The notes beneath the pieces were generated by a model. It ran no database searches. It was not told the origin of the DNA and saw only the letters and a list, made by a program, of their open reading frames with translations. Both the position numbers and the translations under genes were made by a program. A stretch of DNA of 64,000 nucleotides, taken from sequence record MW735835.1; one strand, given 5' to 3'. This DNA comes from Pseudomonas phage pPa_SNUABM_DT01. Of this stretch, positions 4,182 through 54,080 are shown piece after piece (within the stretch, counting starts at the first letter, position 1; every line of letters begins with the position of its first letter).

Positions 4182-4758
4182 CCAGGAAGTCCGTGATCTG
4201 ATCACCAAGTACGGCTTTGCGCAGAATGCACACGGTCGTTACTTCCTGGATGAACCGTTCCTGGATCATGCAGTCGTGGATGAAGAGTGCCCCGAGGGTT
4301 TCCGTCCGGTGGCATTGCATATCGTACCGTACACCATCGTTGAGGGTGAGATCATCTACTACGCTTTCAACAGCATGGGCTTGCCGACTATCTACGTCAG
4401 CTTCAGCATCACCCCGGACGACTTCGTCAACCACAAGGCCGGGGATGAACTGATGTCGCCTTGCCAGTCGATTGTGGGTAAGGTCATCCAAACCTTCGAT
4501 GCGCCACACATCGACCTGAAGGTGGACATCGACAAGTTCAAGTTCCCGGCAGTGGTCGATGGTGAGTTCGTGTGGTCGATGGAAGTCCAATCTGCTGACC
4601 ATCACACTGTGGATGAGCTGGTCGCTCAGTTGGGTTCCATCCTGGGGCGCGTCACCAAAGAGCAAATCATCAATGGTGACGTGGAAGTCAACAAATTGTC
4701 CAAGGACGTGGTCGCTTACAAGGCGCCTGACGTCGCTCCGGACATCACGGTGGGCTGA
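4153..4758 (+). CDS. hypothetical protein (201 aa)
   Basis: ORF track; start overlaps the end of the endonuclease-like gene; typical high GC3. Confidence 0.55.
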   Translation: MSQKLYIENNQEVRDLITKYGFAQNAHGRYFLDEPFLDHAVVDEECPEGFRPVALHIVPYTIVEGEIIYYAFNSMGLPTIYVSFSITPDDFVNHKAGDELMSPCQSIVGKVIQTFDAPHIDLKVDIDKFKFPAVVDGEFVWSMEVQSADHHTVDELVAQLGSILGRVTKEQIINGDVEVNKLSKDVVAYKAPDVAPDITVG

Positions 4759-4759
4759 C

Positions 4760-4987
4760 ATGATCTTCCTCAAGGTTACCGTCATCGCACTGATCGCGAT
4801 GCTTGTCCTGGCCTGGTTGGTTTATCGAGTCAGGCCGCGTTACACCAACTGGATCGACCACGACTGTGAGCGAGCCATGAGTTTCCTGATGTACCTGCGC
4901 ACGACTTGGAAGGAACGCCTGTTCGCCTTGGTCTGCCTGTGGATCATCGTCTACTACAGCCTCATCAATAACCCCTGGAGTTCGTAA
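4760..4987 (+). CDS. small membrane protein (75 aa, one TM)
   Basis: ATG 4760 overlaps the upstream stop (TGACATG); 'VIALIAMLVLAWLVY' hydrophobic segment. Confidence 0.45.
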   Translation: MIFLKVTVIALIAMLVLAWLVYRVRPRYTNWIDHDCERAMSFLMYLRTTWKERLFALVCLWIIVYYSLINNPWSS

Positions 4988-4988
4988 C

Positions 4989-5354
4989 ATGGGAGCCAAG
5001 GCGGCTATCCTGATTCACCTCTTTTCTATGGCGATGTTCATCACCTTGCTGGTGGCGTACATCATCCATGGGCTGATCTACCCACGGGTATCTGGAACGA
5101 TCCCGCTGGGCCCTCACACGGTCGACTACAAGGTCGGTCGAGTGCCGTTCTTCTCAGCACGCAAGTTCTTCGTCAAGTTGTACTACCGTTGGCAGTATGT
5201 CCCTGACTTGAACGGCTTCCTGCAAAGCAGTGCGGGTCGTGACTTGAAGTGCGAAGATAAGTCCTATTGGACACATCTCTTGGACTGCGGTCTTCTGTAT
5301 CCGGCATTGTATGTTTATGTCTATGCCGGATTAGACTGGCTGCTGTTCGGATGA
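4989..5354 (+). CDS. membrane protein (121 aa)
   Basis: N-terminal TM 'AILIHLFSMAMFITLLVAYIIHGLI'; starts 2 nt after the previous stop. Confidence 0.5.
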   Translation: MGAKAAILIHLFSMAMFITLLVAYIIHGLIYPRVSGTIPLGPHTVDYKVGRVPFFSARKFFVKLYYRWQYVPDLNGFLQSSAGRDLKCEDKSYWTHLLDCGLLYPALYVYVYAGLDWLLFG

Positions 5355-26056: not shown

Positions 26057-26082
26057 ATTCGAAATATTTTCAACGATACATA
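26057..26082 (+). promoter_or_regulatory. conserved promoter-like box 'TTTTCAACGATACATAGTAGCAGTGA'
   Basis: One of six copies of the same ~26-nt element placed 20-65 nt upstream of start codons. Confidence 0.55.
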
Positions 26083-26145
26083 GTAGCAGTGAGTAGGAAG
26101 AATAATCTACCTATCTCACTTACCCAACTCTCTGGAGAGACTACT

Positions 26146-29556: not shown

Positions 29557-29582
29557 ATTCAACGATACATGATAGCAGTGAT
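29557..29582 (+). promoter_or_regulatory. promoter-like box 'AATTCAACGATACATGATAGCAGTGA'
   Basis: Second copy of the conserved element, 34 nt before ATG 29616. Confidence 0.55.
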
Positions 29583-43290: not shown

Positions 43291-43314
43291 TTCACTGATA
43301 CATCATGTCAGTGA
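43291..43314 (+). promoter_or_regulatory. promoter-like box variant 'TTCACTGATACATCATGTCAGTGA'
   Basis: Matches the conserved element at 14 of 18 core positions; 22 nt before GTG 43337. Confidence 0.45.
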
Positions 43315-45493: not shown

Positions 45494-45516
45494 ATTCATC
45501 AAGGAATTTCACCATG
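45494..45516 (+). promoter_or_regulatory. initiation box 'CATTCATCAAGGAATTTCACCATG'
   Basis: Copy of the conserved box before the AAA+ gene. Confidence 0.45.
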
Positions 45517-46743
45517 CCTGCACAAGTCAACATCAACAACTACGACAACCACCTCGTGATCACCGCCACCGACCAGAGCAATCTGGTGGATCATGTCCCG
45601 GCGATGGTCTACAAGGCAGTGTTGCGTCCGTACGGCATCGTGCTGATCAAGGACCGTCCGACCTTCACCCTTCCGCAACTGCGCTTCGGTCGCCATAAGC
45701 GTTTCTTCACCCAGATCAGTAACAGCTATGACCGCGATGGCCGTGGCACTGGCGTGCTGTTGGCTGGTGAAAAGGGCACCGGTAAGTCGCTGATGGCGGA
45801 AGAACTGGGCGCCTGGATGATCAAGCAGGACCTGCCGGTGATCATGGTCAGCGAACCCATGTCGGCTGAAGACCTGTCGGTCGTCATTAAGGCTGTCGGG
45901 CCGTGCATGGTGCTCTTCGACGAGTTCGGTAAGGTGTATCACGATGTCCACGAGCGTGAACGCCTGCTGACCCTGTTCTCGGACACCTCGTTCGTCGGTG
46001 TGATGTTCGTCATCACGGGCAACGCTGCCAGTGAGTTCTCCGAGTTCCTGGTTCACCGCCCTCAGCGGTTCCTCTACTGCATCAACTACCACAGTGGTGT
46101 GGACGAGGAGACCATGGAAGACATCCTTACCACCATGCAGGTCAAGCCGGAGATGCATGAGCTGTTCCGCGAGTACCGGGTCGATAGCCGTACCCTGAAC
46201 ATCGACTCGCTCATGTGCGTCGTGCGTCAGTCGGCGGACTGCAAGACCCCGGAGGAGCTTGTAGAGCGTTGCGAGATCCTCAACGTACCGGAACTTCCTA
46301 AGAAGCGCTGGTACATCAAGGATGTCGTTCAGCTCAGCACGGACACCGAGGAAGTCAAGCCGTTTGGCTGGGACTTCAACGCGAACCGTGTAGGCTTCAT
46401 CGGCCTGATCGAAGGACGTGTGATGGAAGCCCGCCATATTCGCGATCCAGAGGGCCGTCGTACGTCTGTCGAGTACCAAGTCTCTGCTGACAACAGCGAC
46501 GTCAAGATCGTCGTAGAAGGCATGCGCACTTTCGAGGTAACCCTCACTTACGGTTACATGCGCCCATGCTTTGATGCTGTGAAGCATGGTGAGCCGCACC
46601 CTGAGGCGGTTCTTACCAGAGAAAACAACCTCATGGTCCCTTCACGGGCAGGTGGTTTTGGTACGTTCCATTCCGAGGCCACCGTGGATAGCGGCTCGCC
46701 GCGTGAACCGTGGCGAGCCGTTCAACCGGCAGGCCGTCATTAA
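45514..46743 (+). CDS. AAA+ ATPase (409 aa)
   Basis: Walker A 'GEKGTGKS', Walker B 'MVLFDEFG', sensor-1-like 'VITGN'. Confidence 0.6.
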   Translation: MPAQVNINNYDNHLVITATDQSNLVDHVPAMVYKAVLRPYGIVLIKDRPTFTLPQLRFGRHKRFFTQISNSYDRDGRGTGVLLAGEKGTGKSLMAEELGAWMIKQDLPVIMVSEPMSAEDLSVVIKAVGPCMVLFDEFGKVYHDVHERERLLTLFSDTSFVGVMFVITGNAASEFSEFLVHRPQRFLYCINYHSGVDEETMEDILTTMQVKPEMHELFREYRVDSRTLNIDSLMCVVRQSADCKTPEELVERCEILNVPELPKKRWYIKDVVQLSTDTEEVKPFGWDFNANRVGFIGLIEGRVMEARHIRDPEGRRTSVEYQVSADNSDVKIVVEGMRTFEVTLTYGYMRPCFDAVKHGEPHPEAVLTRENNLMVPSRAGGFGTFHSEATVDSGSPREPWRAVQPAGRH

Positions 46744-46782
46744 TCCCTGTTCCACCCAACCCAAGGACTAAGGAGTCCAGCA

Positions 46783-47100
46783 ATGCAAGTGAAAAACCTG
46801 AGCAACATCGCTGAAGCCCTGAAAGCCGTCTCCAAAGAAGGCAAGGTCACGTTGGTCATCGACACCCTGAAGAAGCGCGACAGCGCAGCTGTGGGCAAGG
46901 TCGGTGACGTGTACTTCCAGCTGTCCTTCGACTCGTTGGCTGACGGTATCAAAGCTGGTCGTTCCGTGGAACTGAACGTGGAAACCGGCGAGGCTGTACT
47001 GCTCGACGTTCCTGTCCAGCCAGTGACCAAGGCCGTAGAGCCTACTTCTCGTCCTGGCCGCTCCTGCTCCTCCCGCATCAGCAACAAGGACATGATGTAA
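46783..47100 (+). CDS. hypothetical protein (105 aa)
   Basis: 'ctaaggagtccagcaATG'. Confidence 0.5.
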   Translation: MQVKNLSNIAEALKAVSKEGKVTLVIDTLKKRDSAAVGKVGDVYFQLSFDSLADGIKAGRSVELNVETGEAVLLDVPVQPVTKAVEPTSRPGRSCSSRISNKDMM

Positions 47101-47116
47101 CCACCCCGTTCAGAGA

Positions 47117-47147
47117 GGAGGGCTTCGGCCCTCTTTCTCTTTTGTTT
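47117..47147 (+). terminator. hairpin gagggc-ttcg-gccctc + TTTCTCTTTTGTTTG
   Basis: GC stem plus T-rich tail. Confidence 0.6.
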
Positions 47148-47158
47148 GCGAGGAAAGC

Positions 47159-47689
47159 ATGACCACGATCGTTTATCATCAAGGCGCCATCTACGCGGAT
47201 CAGGTCCACGTACGTGCTGGCACACCCTGCACCAGCCATCTGGCTGTTAAAATCTTCACCTCTGCCGATAAGCAGTTCGCCTACGGCGTGAGCGGTCGAG
47301 CCATTGCCCCGAAGGAGCGCGAATCTCTCGAACAGATTCTTCGCAAGGGCCTAGAGAAGCTTCTTGTAGCGAACATGGGCGATTCTATCATGACTCCCAT
47401 GATCTTCTCTGAAGAGGAAATAGAACGTCTCAGCGATTTCGGTGGTTGGGTCATCATGACCAAGACCAGGGCATTCATTTGGCTGTCGCGGATGATCCGC
47501 GAGGCCACAGGAGCAACCATGGGCGCCGGTACCGGTTGCTGGCTGGTGTGCGGAATGATTTACGGCGGCATGAAGCCGGAGAAAGCCATTCTTAACACAG
47601 GTGACTTGGATTGCTGCACTGGTGGCGGTGTGAACAAGATCAGTGCTAAATCCCTGAAACCCTTCGTCATCAAAGGAGAGTCCAAATGA
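47159..47689 (+). CDS. HslV-like N-terminal-nucleophile (proteasome beta-type) hydrolase (176 aa)
   Basis: 'MTTIVYHQGAIYADQ' matches HslV '[20 protein letters not shown]' (Thr1 nucleophile after Met removal); same length as HslV (176 aa). Confidence 0.45.
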   Translation: MTTIVYHQGAIYADQVHVRAGTPCTSHLAVKIFTSADKQFAYGVSGRAIAPKERESLEQILRKGLEKLLVANMGDSIMTPMIFSEEEIERLSDFGGWVIMTKTRAFIWLSRMIREATGATMGAGTGCWLVCGMIYGGMKPEKAILNTGDLDCCTGGGVNKISAKSLKPFVIKGESK

Positions 47690-48267
47690 CCCTCGCAGTC
47701 TGGCTCGACGACGAAGTCGGCCTTCAAGCCCAGGCCAACCCGATGGAAGGTGTGTACTTCCGCCTACCGGAAGACAACTTCGATCGTTGCTTCTCCAAGT
47801 ATGGTTTCGTCTACTCCCTCAAGGAGTTCGAGATCAACTACCCGGCCGTGGTGGAAAATCGCCTCCCGCCAATCCCACGCCACATCAACAATGCGTCCAG
47901 TCAGCTGGTCTACATGCTGATCGATCATTATGGAGAAGTCTGGCAGATCGACTATTGGTCTGATCGCGAAGGCCGCGTCAATGCTCCTCAAATGTCCATC
48001 TTCTCCATGCCGGCCGGAAAGGTGAAGACCCTGGTAGCGTGCACGGATGAAGGCGATTTGGAGTTGCTCACTGGTTTCGTCATGGCCAACCGAAACAAAG
48101 ACGAAATCAACCAGTTCATCTTCGATAAGAAGCTCGGTCACGGCAAACGCCTTACGTGGCTGAGCAAAAAGGACATCGTCGAACGTCTCAATAAGGAGTT
48201 CCCGCTTGAGAAAGATCCCGGTGAAAGTAATCCCTTCGCCCAAGCCATCGCCACCCCCTCGCCCTAA
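47686..48267 (+). CDS. hypothetical protein (193 aa)
   Basis: ATGA overlap with the Ntn-hydrolase gene. Confidence 0.5.
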   Translation: MTLAVWLDDEVGLQAQANPMEGVYFRLPEDNFDRCFSKYGFVYSLKEFEINYPAVVENRLPPIPRHINNASSQLVYMLIDHYGEVWQIDYWSDREGRVNAPQMSIFSMPAGKVKTLVACTDEGDLELLTGFVMANRNKDEINQFIFDKKLGHGKRLTWLSKKDIVERLNKEFPLEKDPGESNPFAQAIATPSP

Positions 48268-48342
48268 CGCGGTGGTAACCTTCTCTCCAGAAGGCAAGAT
48301 CGTGCTCGGACCTGGGCCTATTGGTGGCCCGGGTAAATAAAT

Positions 48343-48378
48343 ACGATCCGACCAAAGATCTATGTAGTAGCACTGTGA
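48343..48378 (+). promoter_or_regulatory. degenerate promoter-like box 'ACGATCCGACCAAAGATCTATGTAGTAGCACTGTGA'
   Basis: Shares 'ACGAT...TAGTAGCA..TGTGA' with the 26057 copy; sits at the start of the structured non-coding locus. Confidence 0.35.
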
Positions 48379-48405
48379 CATCATCCCAAGATCACAAGGA
48401 ACCCA

Positions 48406-48639
48406 ATGCTGCTGAGCCCGGTCATTGGTCTCCTGTGCCGCCCTAACGTCCTATCCTTCGCCTGGAAGGCGCTGATCAAGGCCGTGGCTTTCGAGCCGCC
48501 GCCTACCGAACCCAGCTGGACGCGGCCGCACCCTAAGGAGACCGCCTCTTCGCGGTCCGAGCATTCTGGTCCCTGCCTCACGGATAAGGCCCGTGGCATG
48601 GTGGCGACCGAACGCTTAGACCTAATGTACATCTGCTGA
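48406..48639 (+). CDS. possible small protein (77 aa) - alternatively part of an ncRNA
   Basis: ATG preceded by 'ATCACAAGGAACCCAATG' (initiation-box-like); product Pro/Cys-rich and atypical. Confidence 0.25.
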   Translation: MLLSPVIGLLCRPNVLSFAWKALIKAVAFEPPPTEPSWTRPHPKETASSRSEHSGPCLTDKARGMVATERLDLMYIC

Positions 48640-49165
48640 AGCGAACGCTTAAAACTATCGCCTCTAAGGAGAGCTTGCGATCAAAACCCTCAGCGTTGCC
48701 ACTATGGCGATGCTAACCCTGCTCGTCGCCACCGTCGCTAACGCGGCACCCGTAGTCGGGAGCCCAGGCAAACGGAAGGACGCGGTCGAGATGCCGGATA
48801 GGACCCTCACCCAGGACTCGACACCTGGTCTATCGAGGGCAGTCCCTACTGTGGACTGCTTTGGGTACGAGGCTCCTCTGACAGCGGCTCACGACTGGCG
48901 TGATTCGACACTGGAGCGGGGTAGCTACGTTGTAGTGCCCGAGAGGACTGTCAAGCGCGTGCTTCCGGTGCACGGCAGCCTGACAGTATCGGGAAATACA
49001 ATTTAAGTACCGATACTGATTCGATTAAGTTCGAAGATGATGAGGGGGCAGTGGTCCTCCGTCCTTAGCAGTTAGGCCACCCAAGTATAACGGGACAGGG
49101 CGATTGCCCGACGACACCTGTTGAACGGCTCGAGCCTGGTGCGGGACAAACGTGGTAAAGGTTAC

Positions 49166-49262
49166 GGGGCGTCGTTAGTTTGTAGTTCCTATGGCGGGGT
49201 TGATCTCCCAGCTGAGGTGCTGCCAAACGACGGCCCCTAGACTTCTCTTTATTTTTTGTTTT
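49166..49262 (+). terminator. long hairpin (ggggcgtcgt ... acgacggcccc) + U-tract closing the non-coding locus
   Basis: 10/11-bp outer stem enclosing a ~50-nt structured loop, followed by CTTTATTTTTTGTTTTG. Confidence 0.45.
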
Positions 49263-49296
49263 GCCGGGATACCAATCCTATGGTTACTAATCCCGA

Positions 49297-49618
49297 GACT
49301 TTTATCATGTCCCTGACCCCTCTGGTACAAGTCACCACCTCGTTTGCCAACAGCTCCTCTCCGGGGTCGTTGGATAACCGTGAGCGGTGGCAGGCTGCGC
49401 GAATTACCGCAAGCCACATCAACACCTTCCTCGTTCTCATGACCCGTTGCCCGAAAGAAGCGTTCTCGGGTGAAGAGTTCGAGTCTGCCAAGCACTTGAT
49501 GACCACGTTCCAGGCGGCCTGTGGTATATTCATCGATGGTCTACATACTGCGACCACCGTAGAGCAATTATTGGAGATCAACCAGGAATTCTACTCCATG
49601 TGCTGCGCTAAAGGATAA
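49297..49618 (+). CDS. hypothetical protein (107 aa), start uncertain (alt ATG 49274)
   Basis: ORF 49256-49618. Confidence 0.4.
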
Positions 49619-49623
49619 ACACC

Positions 49624-50274
49624 ATGACCATTAGAACGCTGCTGTGCGCTGGCGCACAGACCAATAAAACCTACTTGCCAGGACCCCAGAACCTCGCGTT
49701 TGGCACAATGGAAGACCGTGGGTATTTCGGCGAGGTGAGTAGTGCTGACCTCGCTACCAGCGCCGAGCTGGCCACTTTGGTTGATTTGGATTCGATCGGC
49801 ACGATAATGAATCCGGCAGCCAGCTGGTTGAAATTCGCTCACAAAGGCAAGGTCCTCTATATTGCCAAACAGCCCCTGCGCCGGGGCTTGACGATCGCTC
49901 AGTATAGCGCCCGTGGTCTGATATATGGTCGTGATGTCACCATTAAAGACATTCCGTTTAAGGTCAGGTTCATGACCGGGGGTGACGCCGATCCCGCTAC
50001 CGTCGGCGGTGGTGAATGGAACGACCTCATGTACCCGGTATGTTCAGCCAGGCCAGCGGGACAACCAATATGGGCCAACTTCTCCGAAGCTACCCTCATG
50101 GTCAATAACGCTGATGTGGGCCGGGCTACTTTCTGTCAAGAATTACGATCAGGGTCTACATTCCACATCTACCGTGGTTACACGTCACTGCAAACTTTTG
50201 CAGCAGCAGTAGCTAACTCCGACATGAACAACTACGGTTGGCGTCCTGTCCTTGAGTACACCGGTTCTCTCTGA
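49624..50274 (+). CDS. hypothetical protein (216 aa)
   Basis: 'aaaggataaacaccATG'. Confidence 0.55.
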   Translation: MTIRTLLCAGAQTNKTYLPGPQNLAFGTMEDRGYFGEVSSADLATSAELATLVDLDSIGTIMNPAASWLKFAHKGKVLYIAKQPLRRGLTIAQYSARGLIYGRDVTIKDIPFKVRFMTGGDADPATVGGGEWNDLMYPVCSARPAGQPIWANFSEATLMVNNADVGRATFCQELRSGSTFHIYRGYTSLQTFAAAVANSDMNNYGWRPVLEYTGSL

Positions 50275-50310: not shown

Positions 50311-50355
50311 GCCGATTTGATTGAAACTTTTTTCAACGATACATGATAGCGGTGA
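50308..50355 (+). promoter_or_regulatory. 48-nt block 'TATGCCGATTTGATTGAAACTTTTTTCAACGATACATGATAGCGGTGA' (promoter-like box)
   Basis: Identical 48-mer also at 54033-54080; contains the conserved promoter-like element 35 nt before ATG 50390. Confidence 0.6.
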
Positions 50356-54032: not shown

Positions 54033-54080
54033 TATGCCGATTTGATTGAAACTTTTTTCAACGATACATGATAGCGGTGA
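54033..54080 (+). promoter_or_regulatory. second copy of the 48-nt promoter-like block
   Basis: Identical to 50308-50355; 34 nt upstream of ATG 54114. Confidence 0.6.

Follow-up and report, generated by a model that had tools for sequence, protein, structure and literature searches.

The locus and its genes

pPa_SNUABM_DT01 (DT01) is a Pseudomonas jumbo phage whose genome of 265,520 bp (56% GC) encodes virion and non-virion multisubunit RNA polymerases (PMC8541153). The paper describing it covers the genome together with growth data, and its annotation lists two tRNAs and reports no transfer-messenger RNA (tmRNA) (PMC8541153). The subject of this report is a gap poor in open reading frames (ORFs) at positions 48268-49279 of a 64,000-nucleotide (nt) stretch of that genome (the window; record MW735835.1), whose main product is probably a large structured RNA. 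The surrounding genes are tightly packed, abut one another and lie nearly all on the + strand. Upstream of the gap stand genes for an ATPase, a 105-amino-acid (aa) protein, an HslV-like peptidase and a 193-aa protein (g193). Downstream follow a 112-aa gene (g112) and the gene of a virion structural protein (g216, 49624-50274).

A preliminary description of the window had singled out this kilobase as ORF-poor among abutting genes, and the gap is real: it holds only two small ORFs, of 77 aa (ORF77) and 100 aa (ORF100) (Table 1). ORF77 is named hypothetical protein PA10_00292 in GenBank, and g112 hypothetical protein PA10_00293. Stop-codon recoding and a hidden long gene are excluded, because all three stop codons (TAA, TAG and TGA) occur in each of the six frames of the gap. 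Decayed gene fragments were also considered; six-frame segments of the gap compared with PHROGs and Pfam gave nothing significant.

Table 1. Features of the ORF-poor gap, with the promoter-like boxes and terminator hairpins found elsewhere in the window
Feature	Position	Strand	Remarks
Two hairpins	48279-48294, 48310-48334	+	directly 3' of the g193 stop codon
Promoter-like box CCAAAGATCTATGTAGTAGCACTGTGACATCATC	48352-48385	+	TATG at 48361-48364; presumed RNA start region
ORF77 (PA10_00292)	48406-48639	+	Shine-Dalgarno sequence AAGGA at 48396-48400
Hairpin Hx	48573-48604	+	loop AUAAGGC; inside the 3' half of ORF77
Conserved block GGUGGCGACCGAACGC	48600-48615	+	with Hx, within the 3' half of ORF77
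Middle structured domain	48660-48958	+	contains 'ORF100' (48704-49006)
Domain I	48936-49067	+	P1, P0, P2, P3, Hc
Enclosing helix P0	48939-48952 with 48982-48992	+	
P1 hairpin	48958-48974	+	loop UUCCGGU
Alternative helix P2	48984-48992 with 49010-49018	+	
P3 hairpin	49020-49035	+	invariant loop UUAAGU
Hairpin Hc	49044-49059	+	stem sequence variable
Domain II	49068-49154	+	branched; this form only in DT01 and L025
Domain III	49155-49265	+	terminal stem 49166-49176 with 49226-49237; U-run 49244-49262
GGGG-UUGAUCU-CCC hairpin	49196-49209	+	in the three-tier inner stem-loop of domain III
Motif TACCAATCCTATGG	49270-49283	+	3' of the terminator, outside the RNA
Strong promoter-like boxes	26071-26092, 29560-29581, 50334-50355, 54059-54080		
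Near-identical terminator hairpins	9076, 21118, 26022, 31000, 36824, 38076		ends of transcription units
Near-identical terminator hairpins, continued	47111, 50280, 51125, 53153, 60937, 62703		ends of transcription units

Conservation in related phages

The DNA and the flanking proteins matched nothing in a local collection of annotated phages from which the source phage is absent. A search via g112 identified a 266,646-bp IMG/VR contig (L021) with a g112 61% identical to that of DT01, and a search with a small g112 alignment added the metagenome contigs L025 (g112 80% identical) and L026 (65%). Upstream of g112, all three have 0.9-1.5 kb of ORF-poor sequence. The element need not adjoin g112 directly: in L021 a 206-aa gene (4371-4991) without a detectable DT01 homolog lies between them.

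L025 aligns with the entire gap at 79.5% nucleotide identity over 1,023 nt. Between DT01 and L025, identity is 55% in the HslV-like gene and 52% in g193, rises to 76% in ORF77, 78% in the ORF100 region and 90.6% over 49061-49240, the most conserved stretch, and is 75% in g112 and 65% in g240. Synonymous sites of the neighbouring genes differ at ~45% of positions (~55% identity), against 76-91% identity in the locus. Substitution in the locus thus runs at about half the rate seen at synonymous sites nearby and is even over codon positions, which argues for selection on the nucleotide sequence and not on a protein. Such conservation above the neutral level without codon periodicity is what a structured non-coding RNA (ncRNA) would generically display.

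Two candidate sets of relatives were discarded. L005 and L006, distant relatives by g216, are not syntenic and lack the element. The DNA pattern AAGCGCG-N-CGATTAAGTTCG gave chance matches in IMG/VR (L023 and L024), rejected on inspection, and a stricter form of it matched nothing in bacterial genomes.

Coding potential of ORF100 and ORF77

The marks of a protein-coding gene, namely an excess of synonymous changes, a kept frame and homologs, are all missing from ORF100. Its differences between DT01 and L025 are spread flatly over codon positions 1, 2 and 3 (0.22/0.18/0.22), and its changed codons comprise 7 synonymous and 31 non-synonymous ones, with 6:37 and 6:39 in its own out-of-frame controls. 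Real genes compared over the same pair have an excess at third positions (g112 0.18/0.12/0.45, g240 0.26/0.21/0.47, g180 0.12/0.09/0.36), and g112 has 41 synonymous and 23 non-synonymous changed codons. Strain polymorphisms, taken from 11 near-identical metagenomic contigs (98.7-99.9% identity), give the same contrast: 0 synonymous and 4 non-synonymous in ORF100, and about 35:5 in the four upstream flanking genes. L025 lacks the first ATG of ORF100, and gene callers give only a 51-aa piece there. L021 and L026 have no ORF at this position, and the block CCGAGAGGACT(GTC/CA)AAGCGCGTG inside ORF100 carries a frame-breaking 1-nt indel in L021.

Homologs of ORF77 and ORF100 among 5.8 billion proteins were limited to 99%-identical copies. 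An exhaustive HMMER search with ORF100 added one fragment from the related contig L025 and a low-complexity protein only, and neither ORF had Pfam or PHROG matches. Codon-usage scores of both lie between those of real genes and of shadow ORFs and are coding-like only in the first ~100 nt. AlphaFold models of the two are of low confidence and uninformative, with a predicted local distance difference test (pLDDT) score of 46 for ORF100 and of 61, with one helix, for ORF77. To judge from these comparisons, ORF100 is most likely not a protein-coding gene.

A frame read from an ATC at 48680, 7 nt past a GGAGA Shine-Dalgarno (SD) sequence, begins with a textbook-like Sec signal peptide (48680-48750; IKTLSVATMAMLTLLVATVANA, then AP). 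A start of this kind goes unexplained if the locus is purely RNA, and either coincidence in G+C-rich DNA or a remnant of an earlier gene could account for it. It also lends some appeal to the view that the gap is a moron-like cassette of two lineage-specific ORFan proteins, one of 77 aa and a secreted one of 100 aa. SD-like sequences stand before both frames, both are open in L025, and ORF77 is annotated in GenBank. The codon pattern of ORF100, its exclusively non-synonymous polymorphisms, its lost ATG in L025 and its absence or disruption in the other two lineages, together with the weak coding scores, the lack of homologs or families and the poor ORF100 model, nevertheless make such a cassette very unlikely.

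The 5' part of the locus is of a more mixed character. An SD sequence and an ATG open a small ORF in all four lineages (77, 71, 90 and 90 aa), always after a TATGT motif, and no similarity is detectable between the DT01/L025 peptides and those of L021/L026. The L021 and L026 ORFs have the motif W..VSLVRS.GSL..GPL in common and show 51/39/63 differences of 87 at codon positions 1/2/3 (22/14/30 in the first 42 codons), the figures for g112 being 34/16/56. This weak coding signal implies that the transcript may be bifunctional, and ORF77 possibly encodes a micro-protein with an N-terminal helix. Between DT01 and L025, codon-position differences are 0.21/0.20/0.30, changed codons number 10 synonymous and 23 non-synonymous, and amino acid identity is 59% at 76% nucleotide identity; the C-termini differ, and the alignment has 7 gap columns, with frame-shifting indels of which some compensate one another. 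Strain polymorphism in ORF77 amounts to a single synonymous site, which has three alleles, and a single non-synonymous change, of a dinucleotide.

Several parts of ORF77 are kept as nucleotides. The blocks CCUCACGGAUAAGGCCCGUGG and CUUAGACCUA.UGUACAU.CUGCUGAAGCGAAC are near-identical in L025 whatever the frame, and Hx with GGUGGCGACCGAACGC is identical at 29 of 30 positions despite differing reading frames. The Hx stem is CACGG/CCGUG in DT01, CGAUC/GGUCG in L021 (with the same loop) and CAUGC/GCAUG in L026. The preliminary description had held that amino-acid conservation of ORF77 would speak against an RNA. Of this, the presence of a small ORF in every lineage stands; conservation as a protein is weak, given the 59% identity, the indels and the overlap with RNA structure.

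The same evidence bears on a plainer account, in which the transcript is an ordinary messenger RNA (mRNA) of the ORF77 family and the structured part is its long cis-acting 3' untranslated region (UTR), serving stability or translation control. The 71-90 aa ORF directly past a promoter-like box in all four lineages, the weak coding pattern and shared motif of L021 and L026, and the small protein genes that each of the other promoter boxes of the genome precedes all fit it. It sits poorly with the better conservation of the non-coding part than of the ORF (up to 90.6% against 76%), with frame-shifting indels, differing C-termini and an RNA structure that overlaps the 3' half of the ORF, and with a multi-domain structure of ~650 nt with invariant loops, which exceeds the usual need of message stabilization. 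A 3' UTR of this kind is a possible but distinctly less favoured explanation.

Secondary structure and covariation

Folded as a single sequence, the 998-nt region is more stable than its shuffles on the two strands (z = -3.2 and -3.5), and several coding stretches have sliding folding z-scores as low as the gap or lower. RNAalifold places 261 pairs in the DT01/L025 alignment, 17 of them with double compensatory changes. Because RNAalifold favours compatible pairs, consensus energies were compared with those of column-shuffled alignments. The resulting z-scores on the + and - strands are -3.2 and -2.6 for columns 1-300, -5.4 and -3.4 for columns 300-600 (the middle domain), and -7.4 and -0.6 for columns 600-900. 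Four flanking coding regions of similar divergence range from +0.9 to -3.0 on the + strand and from +2.4 to -2.2 on the - strand. The strand asymmetry, the + strand G.U pairs and the common orientation of the box, the SD sequence and the U-run point to a + strand RNA.

Covariance models of domain I (R1), domain III (R2) and the upstream block of Hx (R3), built from DT01 and L025 only, recovered the diverged copies at full length. R1 scores L025 at 146 bits and finds L021 at E = 1.6e-10 and L026 at E = 7.5e-6, R2 scores L025 at 132 bits and finds L021 at E = 7.5e-8, and R3 finds L026 at E = 0.0024. No second copy of the element was found with these models in the window or in more distant relatives. 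Paired cells make up 96% in both domains, and double changes occur in 10 of the 28 pairs of domain I and in 10 of the 27 pairs of domain III. Neither count was reached by any of 500 shuffles, and slid controls gave at most 2 and at most 3, respectively. The multi-lineage alignments have column-shuffle z-scores of -11.8 and -10.0 on the + strand and are strongly negative on both strands. A comparison across related phages, which the preliminary description had proposed, thus yields compensatory pairs in domains I and III: over four lineages, in alignments fitted by the models, secondary structure is conserved and compensated beyond what shuffled alignments give.

Several compensated stems are visible in the sequences themselves, among them those of Hx, Hc and domain III. 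Within domain I, the stem of Hc has changed in every lineage while remaining paired (GGGGGC/GUCCUC in DT01, GGGAGC/GCUCUC in L025, UUGGAU/AUCCAA in L021 and UAGAC/GUCUA in L026). G/A strain differences within 49039-49063 fall at 49045, 49048 and 49051, exactly 3 nt apart; two of them turn G.U into A-U and one lies in the loop, and the G at 49051 is unique to DT01. The 3' strand of P0 can pair downstream as P2 instead, in all four lineages, so that the two helices are mutually exclusive. Their respective energies are -27.2/-24.0, -31.1/-27.0, -17.3/-10.6 and -24.6/-22.6 kcal/mol, and both helices in L026 are quite different in sequence from those of the other lineages. Domain II, which falls within the most conserved stretch (49061-49240), folds as a multibranch structure in RNAalifold with some compensatory pairs, and ~80 nt of it are missing in L021. 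The terminal stem of domain III is GGGGCGUCGUU/AACGACGGCCCC in DT01 and GGGGAACUCUU/AAGAGUUACCCC in L021; a comparable stem, GGCACCGA/UCGGUGCC, is present with a T-run in L026.

Conservation might instead act on the DNA, as in a replication origin, a packaging site or a protein-binding region. The palindromes CCGG, TTAA, GATC and TTCGAA in several conserved loops and stems are compatible with this, as are the negative z-scores of the four-lineage alignments on both strands. The 3' 300 nt of the DT01/L025 alignment behave otherwise, with a z-score of -7.4 on the + strand against -0.6 on the - strand, an asymmetry expected for RNA because G.U pairs work on one strand only. Strain variants turn G.U into A-U on the + strand, the box, the SD sequence and the U-run terminator share one orientation, and the gap, at 55-61% GC, has neither iterons nor an AT-rich unwinding region. 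A DNA element is therefore a highly improbable explanation.

Promoter-like boxes, terminators and probable start signals

The two hairpins at the 5' edge of the gap probably end the upstream transcription unit and lie outside the RNA proper. The stretch 48268-48345 has a folding z-score of -3.4, and 77% of the 5' hairpin stretch is identical between DT01 and L025. Three strain variants keep their pairs (48289 A>G gives G.U, 48313 turns U.G into C-G, and 48328 turns G-C into G.U), and a fourth, at 48286, falls in a hairpin loop.

The promoter-like box follows, with 33 of its 34 positions kept in L025. L021 and L026 have a TATGT(A/G) motif at equal distance from SD and ATG. The order TATGT motif, SD and ATG in all four lineages suggests that this box acts as a promoter and marks the start of the transcript. 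The preliminary description had regarded it as a degenerate copy of the promoter box conserved elsewhere in the genome, an identification that fails: its gapped score is 20, compared with 44 for real copies, and shuffles reach 20-28. That other box, CAACGATACATGATAGCRGTGA, has four strong copies in the window, of the form (GATTGAAA-N)-TTCAACGATACATGATAGCRGTGA. Each is preceded by a terminator hairpin and followed after 20-35 nt by an SD sequence and an ATG, often of a small gene, and the four probably represent a class of phage promoters. A weaker variant may lie at about 43291-43314.

At the other end of the gap, the long hairpin with a U-tract noted in the preliminary description is confirmed and has compensatory changes in a relative. 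A predicted 11-bp stem with a U-run behind it, placed where the unit ends, is what an intrinsic terminator would present, and domain III would accordingly form both the intrinsic terminator and the 3' end of the RNA. It resembles known intrinsic terminators in its G+C-rich, covarying stem and the U-run behind it. It differs from them in two respects: in place of a short loop, the stem carries ~49 nt folded into a conserved three-tier stem-loop, and the U-run begins ~6 nt past the stem. It is also unlike the standard terminators of DT01, a family of hairpins in the window of the form GGAGGGCTTCGGCCCTCC / GGAGGGCUUCGGCCCUCC, or a variant with a CCUAGG loop, followed by a T-run; domain III lacks the standard GGAGGGCUUCGGCCCUCC form and was missed by a simple terminator scan. 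The T-run at 49244-49262 differs in length among strains, with extra T's in L002 (four), L014 and L017.

Between the U-run and g112, and overlapping 49280, lies TACCWATCCTAT, which is kept in DT01, L025 and L021 and probably serves the next unit as promoter or start region. The annotated ATG of g112 (49280) is ATA in L025, and the L021 and L026 homologs align from about residue 13-15. This start is probably wrong, the ATG at 49307 being the better candidate.

The position of the terminator immediately before g112 raises the prospect that late genes (g112 and those of the virion) are controlled by a leader or attenuator, in which termination is conditional and P0/P2 sense a factor for read-through. 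In each of the four lineages the element precedes g112 and has P0 and P2 competing for one strand, with different sequences in L026. An antiterminator helix is however not evident, as ~170-250 nt separate P0/P2 from the terminator downstream, with no overlap between them. TACCWATCCTAT resembles a separate start signal, L021 has the 206-aa gene between the element and g112, and a leader of ~900 nt with its own translated ORF would be unusual. On balance, attenuation is an unlikely role for the locus.

The tmRNA reading

The preliminary description had read the locus as a possible tmRNA, standard or permuted, with a tRNA-like domain. The strings on which this was based are indeed present (TGAAGCGAACGCTTAAAACT at 48637-48656, GCGGGGTTGATCTCCC...GCTGCCA at 49195-49226 and CCAAACGACGG at 49223-49233), and the resemblance to tmRNA consists of such short strings (the GGGG-UUGAUCU-CCC hairpin, ...GCUGCCA and CCAAACGACGG) and of the general idea of a structured RNA carrying a short frame. 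ARAGORN reports 0 tRNA or tmRNA genes in the 64 kb. Rfam (4227 families) has no match at gathering scores, none to the tmRNA models RF00023 and RF01849-RF01851 or to tRNA, and only four junk matches at E <= 10 in 48100-49400; the L021, L025 and L026 loci give nothing at E <= 1. Neither ARAGORN nor the Rfam tRNA model detects a cloverleaf with an anticodon arm in the gap.

The individual strings have other roles. The consensus of T-loops is UUCRANY, and the supposed T-arm loop UUGAUCU departs from it by a G in place of C and a U in place of the conserved A. The segment GCUGCCA...AACGACGG, taken as an acceptor end, supplies the 3' strand to helices of the terminator domain; GCUGCCA pairs with 49182-49186, has no 5' partner that would give an acceptor stem, and belongs to no CCA-ended tRNA-like domain. 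CCAAACGACGG, proposed as the start of a tag ORF, is instead the 3' strand of the covarying terminal stem, and ARAGORN gives no tag peptide. With T-loop, acceptor stem, tag frame and any ARAGORN or Infernal match all lacking, there is next to no chance that the locus is a phage tmRNA or another tRNA-like RNA.

A large structured RNA as the favoured explanation

The locus is under purifying selection at the nucleotide level without codon periodicity, its helices are kept by compensatory substitutions, and it belongs to no known family. The gap is thus best explained, with fair though not strong confidence, as a single + strand unit of ~0.9 kb (48.36-49.26 kb) that chiefly yields a large structured RNA of an undescribed family. 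The preliminary description had allowed for another large ncRNA as a fallback, and it is this suggestion that conserved nucleotides without periodicity, the + strand fold and the compensatory changes uphold in four lineages. The family appears to be common to a small clade of phiKZ-like jumbo phages.

In the proposed mechanism, the conserved TATGT box would serve as the phage promoter that starts the transcript. The first ~230 nt would carry the small ORF with its SD sequence and might be translated into a micro-protein, and the remaining ~650 nt (Hx, the middle domain that mimics 'ORF100', and domains I-III) would fold as a multi-domain RNA. This RNA would end at its own intrinsic terminator, g112 then having a separate start signal, and could accumulate as a stable, independent molecule that acts in trans. 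The invariant single-stranded loops UUCCGGU, UUAAGU and UUGAUC may bind a protein or RNA partner or other copies of the RNA, and the mutually exclusive P0 and P2 would permit two conformations, a possible switch.

A more specific version, in which the transcript is a self-assembling large 'ornate' phage RNA whose copies join through kissing loops into a multimeric particle, has only a small likelihood. Self-complementary tetramers occur in three conserved loops: CCGG in P1 (UUAA in L021), UUAA in P3 and GAUC in domain III. A rough estimate puts the chance of a palindromic tetramer in all three loops at ~1%, for a pattern noticed after the fact. P0 and P2 might then switch between assembly states. 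For a jumbo phage with RNA polymerases of its own, an RNA of this kind might provide a scaffold or act as a decoy for host defences.

Several observations weigh against a large structured RNA. The sliding 200-nt folding z-score of the gap averages -1.6 against a genome mean of -1.0 (standard deviation 1.3) and is no outlier, so that the earlier wording 'highly structured' does not hold for the single sequence and becomes apt once homologs are compared. Strain polymorphisms do not avoid destabilizing the fold (P = 0.38, 0.20), and one of them, 49221 T>G, disrupts an A-U pair of domain III. The covariation counts lean towards structure because the alignments were fitted by covariance models; they come from four lineages only, of which DT01 and L025 are close, and uneven divergence in mosaic genomes could inflate the apparent conservation. 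ORF100 is open without an indel over ~295 nt in L025 and has a good SD sequence and the signal-peptide-like start, leaving some room for a rapidly evolving protein in the branch of DT01 and L025. The existence of the transcript, its ends, its abundance and its independence from the neighbours are all inferred from sequence signals, and the trans-acting mode is a guess.

If the favoured explanation is correct, an RNA family of ~0.7-0.9 kb in a cultivable and therapeutically studied Pseudomonas aeruginosa jumbo phage would offer a tractable infection system. The annotation of DT01 would need correction, in that PA10_00292 overlaps a conserved RNA, 'ORF100' is no gene and the start of g112 is probably misplaced. 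More generally, ORF-poor stretches of jumbo phages can conceal conserved RNAs that are invisible to Rfam and to single-sequence folding statistics.

Neighbouring genes

Relatives reached through g193 (~50% amino acid identity) lack the gap. In five of them (L007, L009, L010, L011 and L012), genes of 98 aa (g98) and 94 aa (g94) and an AAA ATPase of 461-490 aa come after the HslV-like gene and the g193 homolog. Synteny with DT01 breaks here (45514-48267): DT01 has its ATPase homolog (409 aa) upstream, and neither of the two small genes can be detected in it. The gap was considered as diverged or decayed orthologs of g98 and g94, and tblastn found nothing; one hhalign alignment to a gene of this type (P = 0.06) was unsupported by a whole-window search with hidden Markov models.

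Among near-identical strains, g216 has 8 non-synonymous and 2 synonymous variable sites, including an A>G cluster at 50104, 50105, 50107 and 50108 in adjacent AAT AAC codons. This variation looks like diversifying selection on a receptor-binding-type protein, or possibly like adenine-directed mutagenesis. No template repeat of a diversity-generating retroelement, as a source of these sites, was seen in the window.

Comparison with known RNAs

Large structured ncRNAs are rare, most classes (GOLLD, ROOL, OLE, raiA) are without a known function, and several are borne by phages. Covariance models of GOLLD, ROOL, OLE, raiA, HEARO and other large Rfam RNAs gave no matches in the four lineages at permissive thresholds. 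The packaging RNA (pRNA) of phage phi29, of ~120-174 nt, is specific to phi29-like phages and assembles via loop-loop contacts. Like it, the DT01 element is a structured phage RNA near morphogenesis genes, and its palindromic loops could in principle assemble likewise. The two differ in size and in phage group; the pRNA model included in the Rfam library has no match here, and nothing ties the DT01 RNA to packaging.

Small RNAs (sRNAs) of giant Pseudomonas phages include sRNA005 of 201phi2-1 and an sRNA upstream of gp182 in phiKZ, both shorter than 250 nt and derived from 5' UTRs by premature termination (PMC11512511). They share with the DT01 element the occurrence in phiKZ-like jumbo phages, a conserved position beside morphogenesis genes and a conserved predicted secondary structure. 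The DT01 unit is distinguished by its ~900 nt and by its own promoter-like box and terminator, and no sequence relation to these sRNAs was found. The papers searched contained no RNA of comparable size and architecture.

GOLLD and ROOL are Rfam families of large 'ornate' RNAs that phages and prophages encode. In GOLLD the 3' region is well conserved and the 5' region poorly so, and the nanocages of GOLLD and ROOL use kissing-loop contacts (PMC12286853). The DT01 RNA differs from both in having no match to them in sequence or structure, no nearby tRNA island and a possible 5' micro-ORF, and in coming from Pseudomonas-type jumbo phages and not from Lactobacillales or rumen phages. It resembles them in being phage-encoded, several hundred nucleotides long, multi-domain and supported by covariation, and, as in GOLLD, its 3' part is the better conserved.

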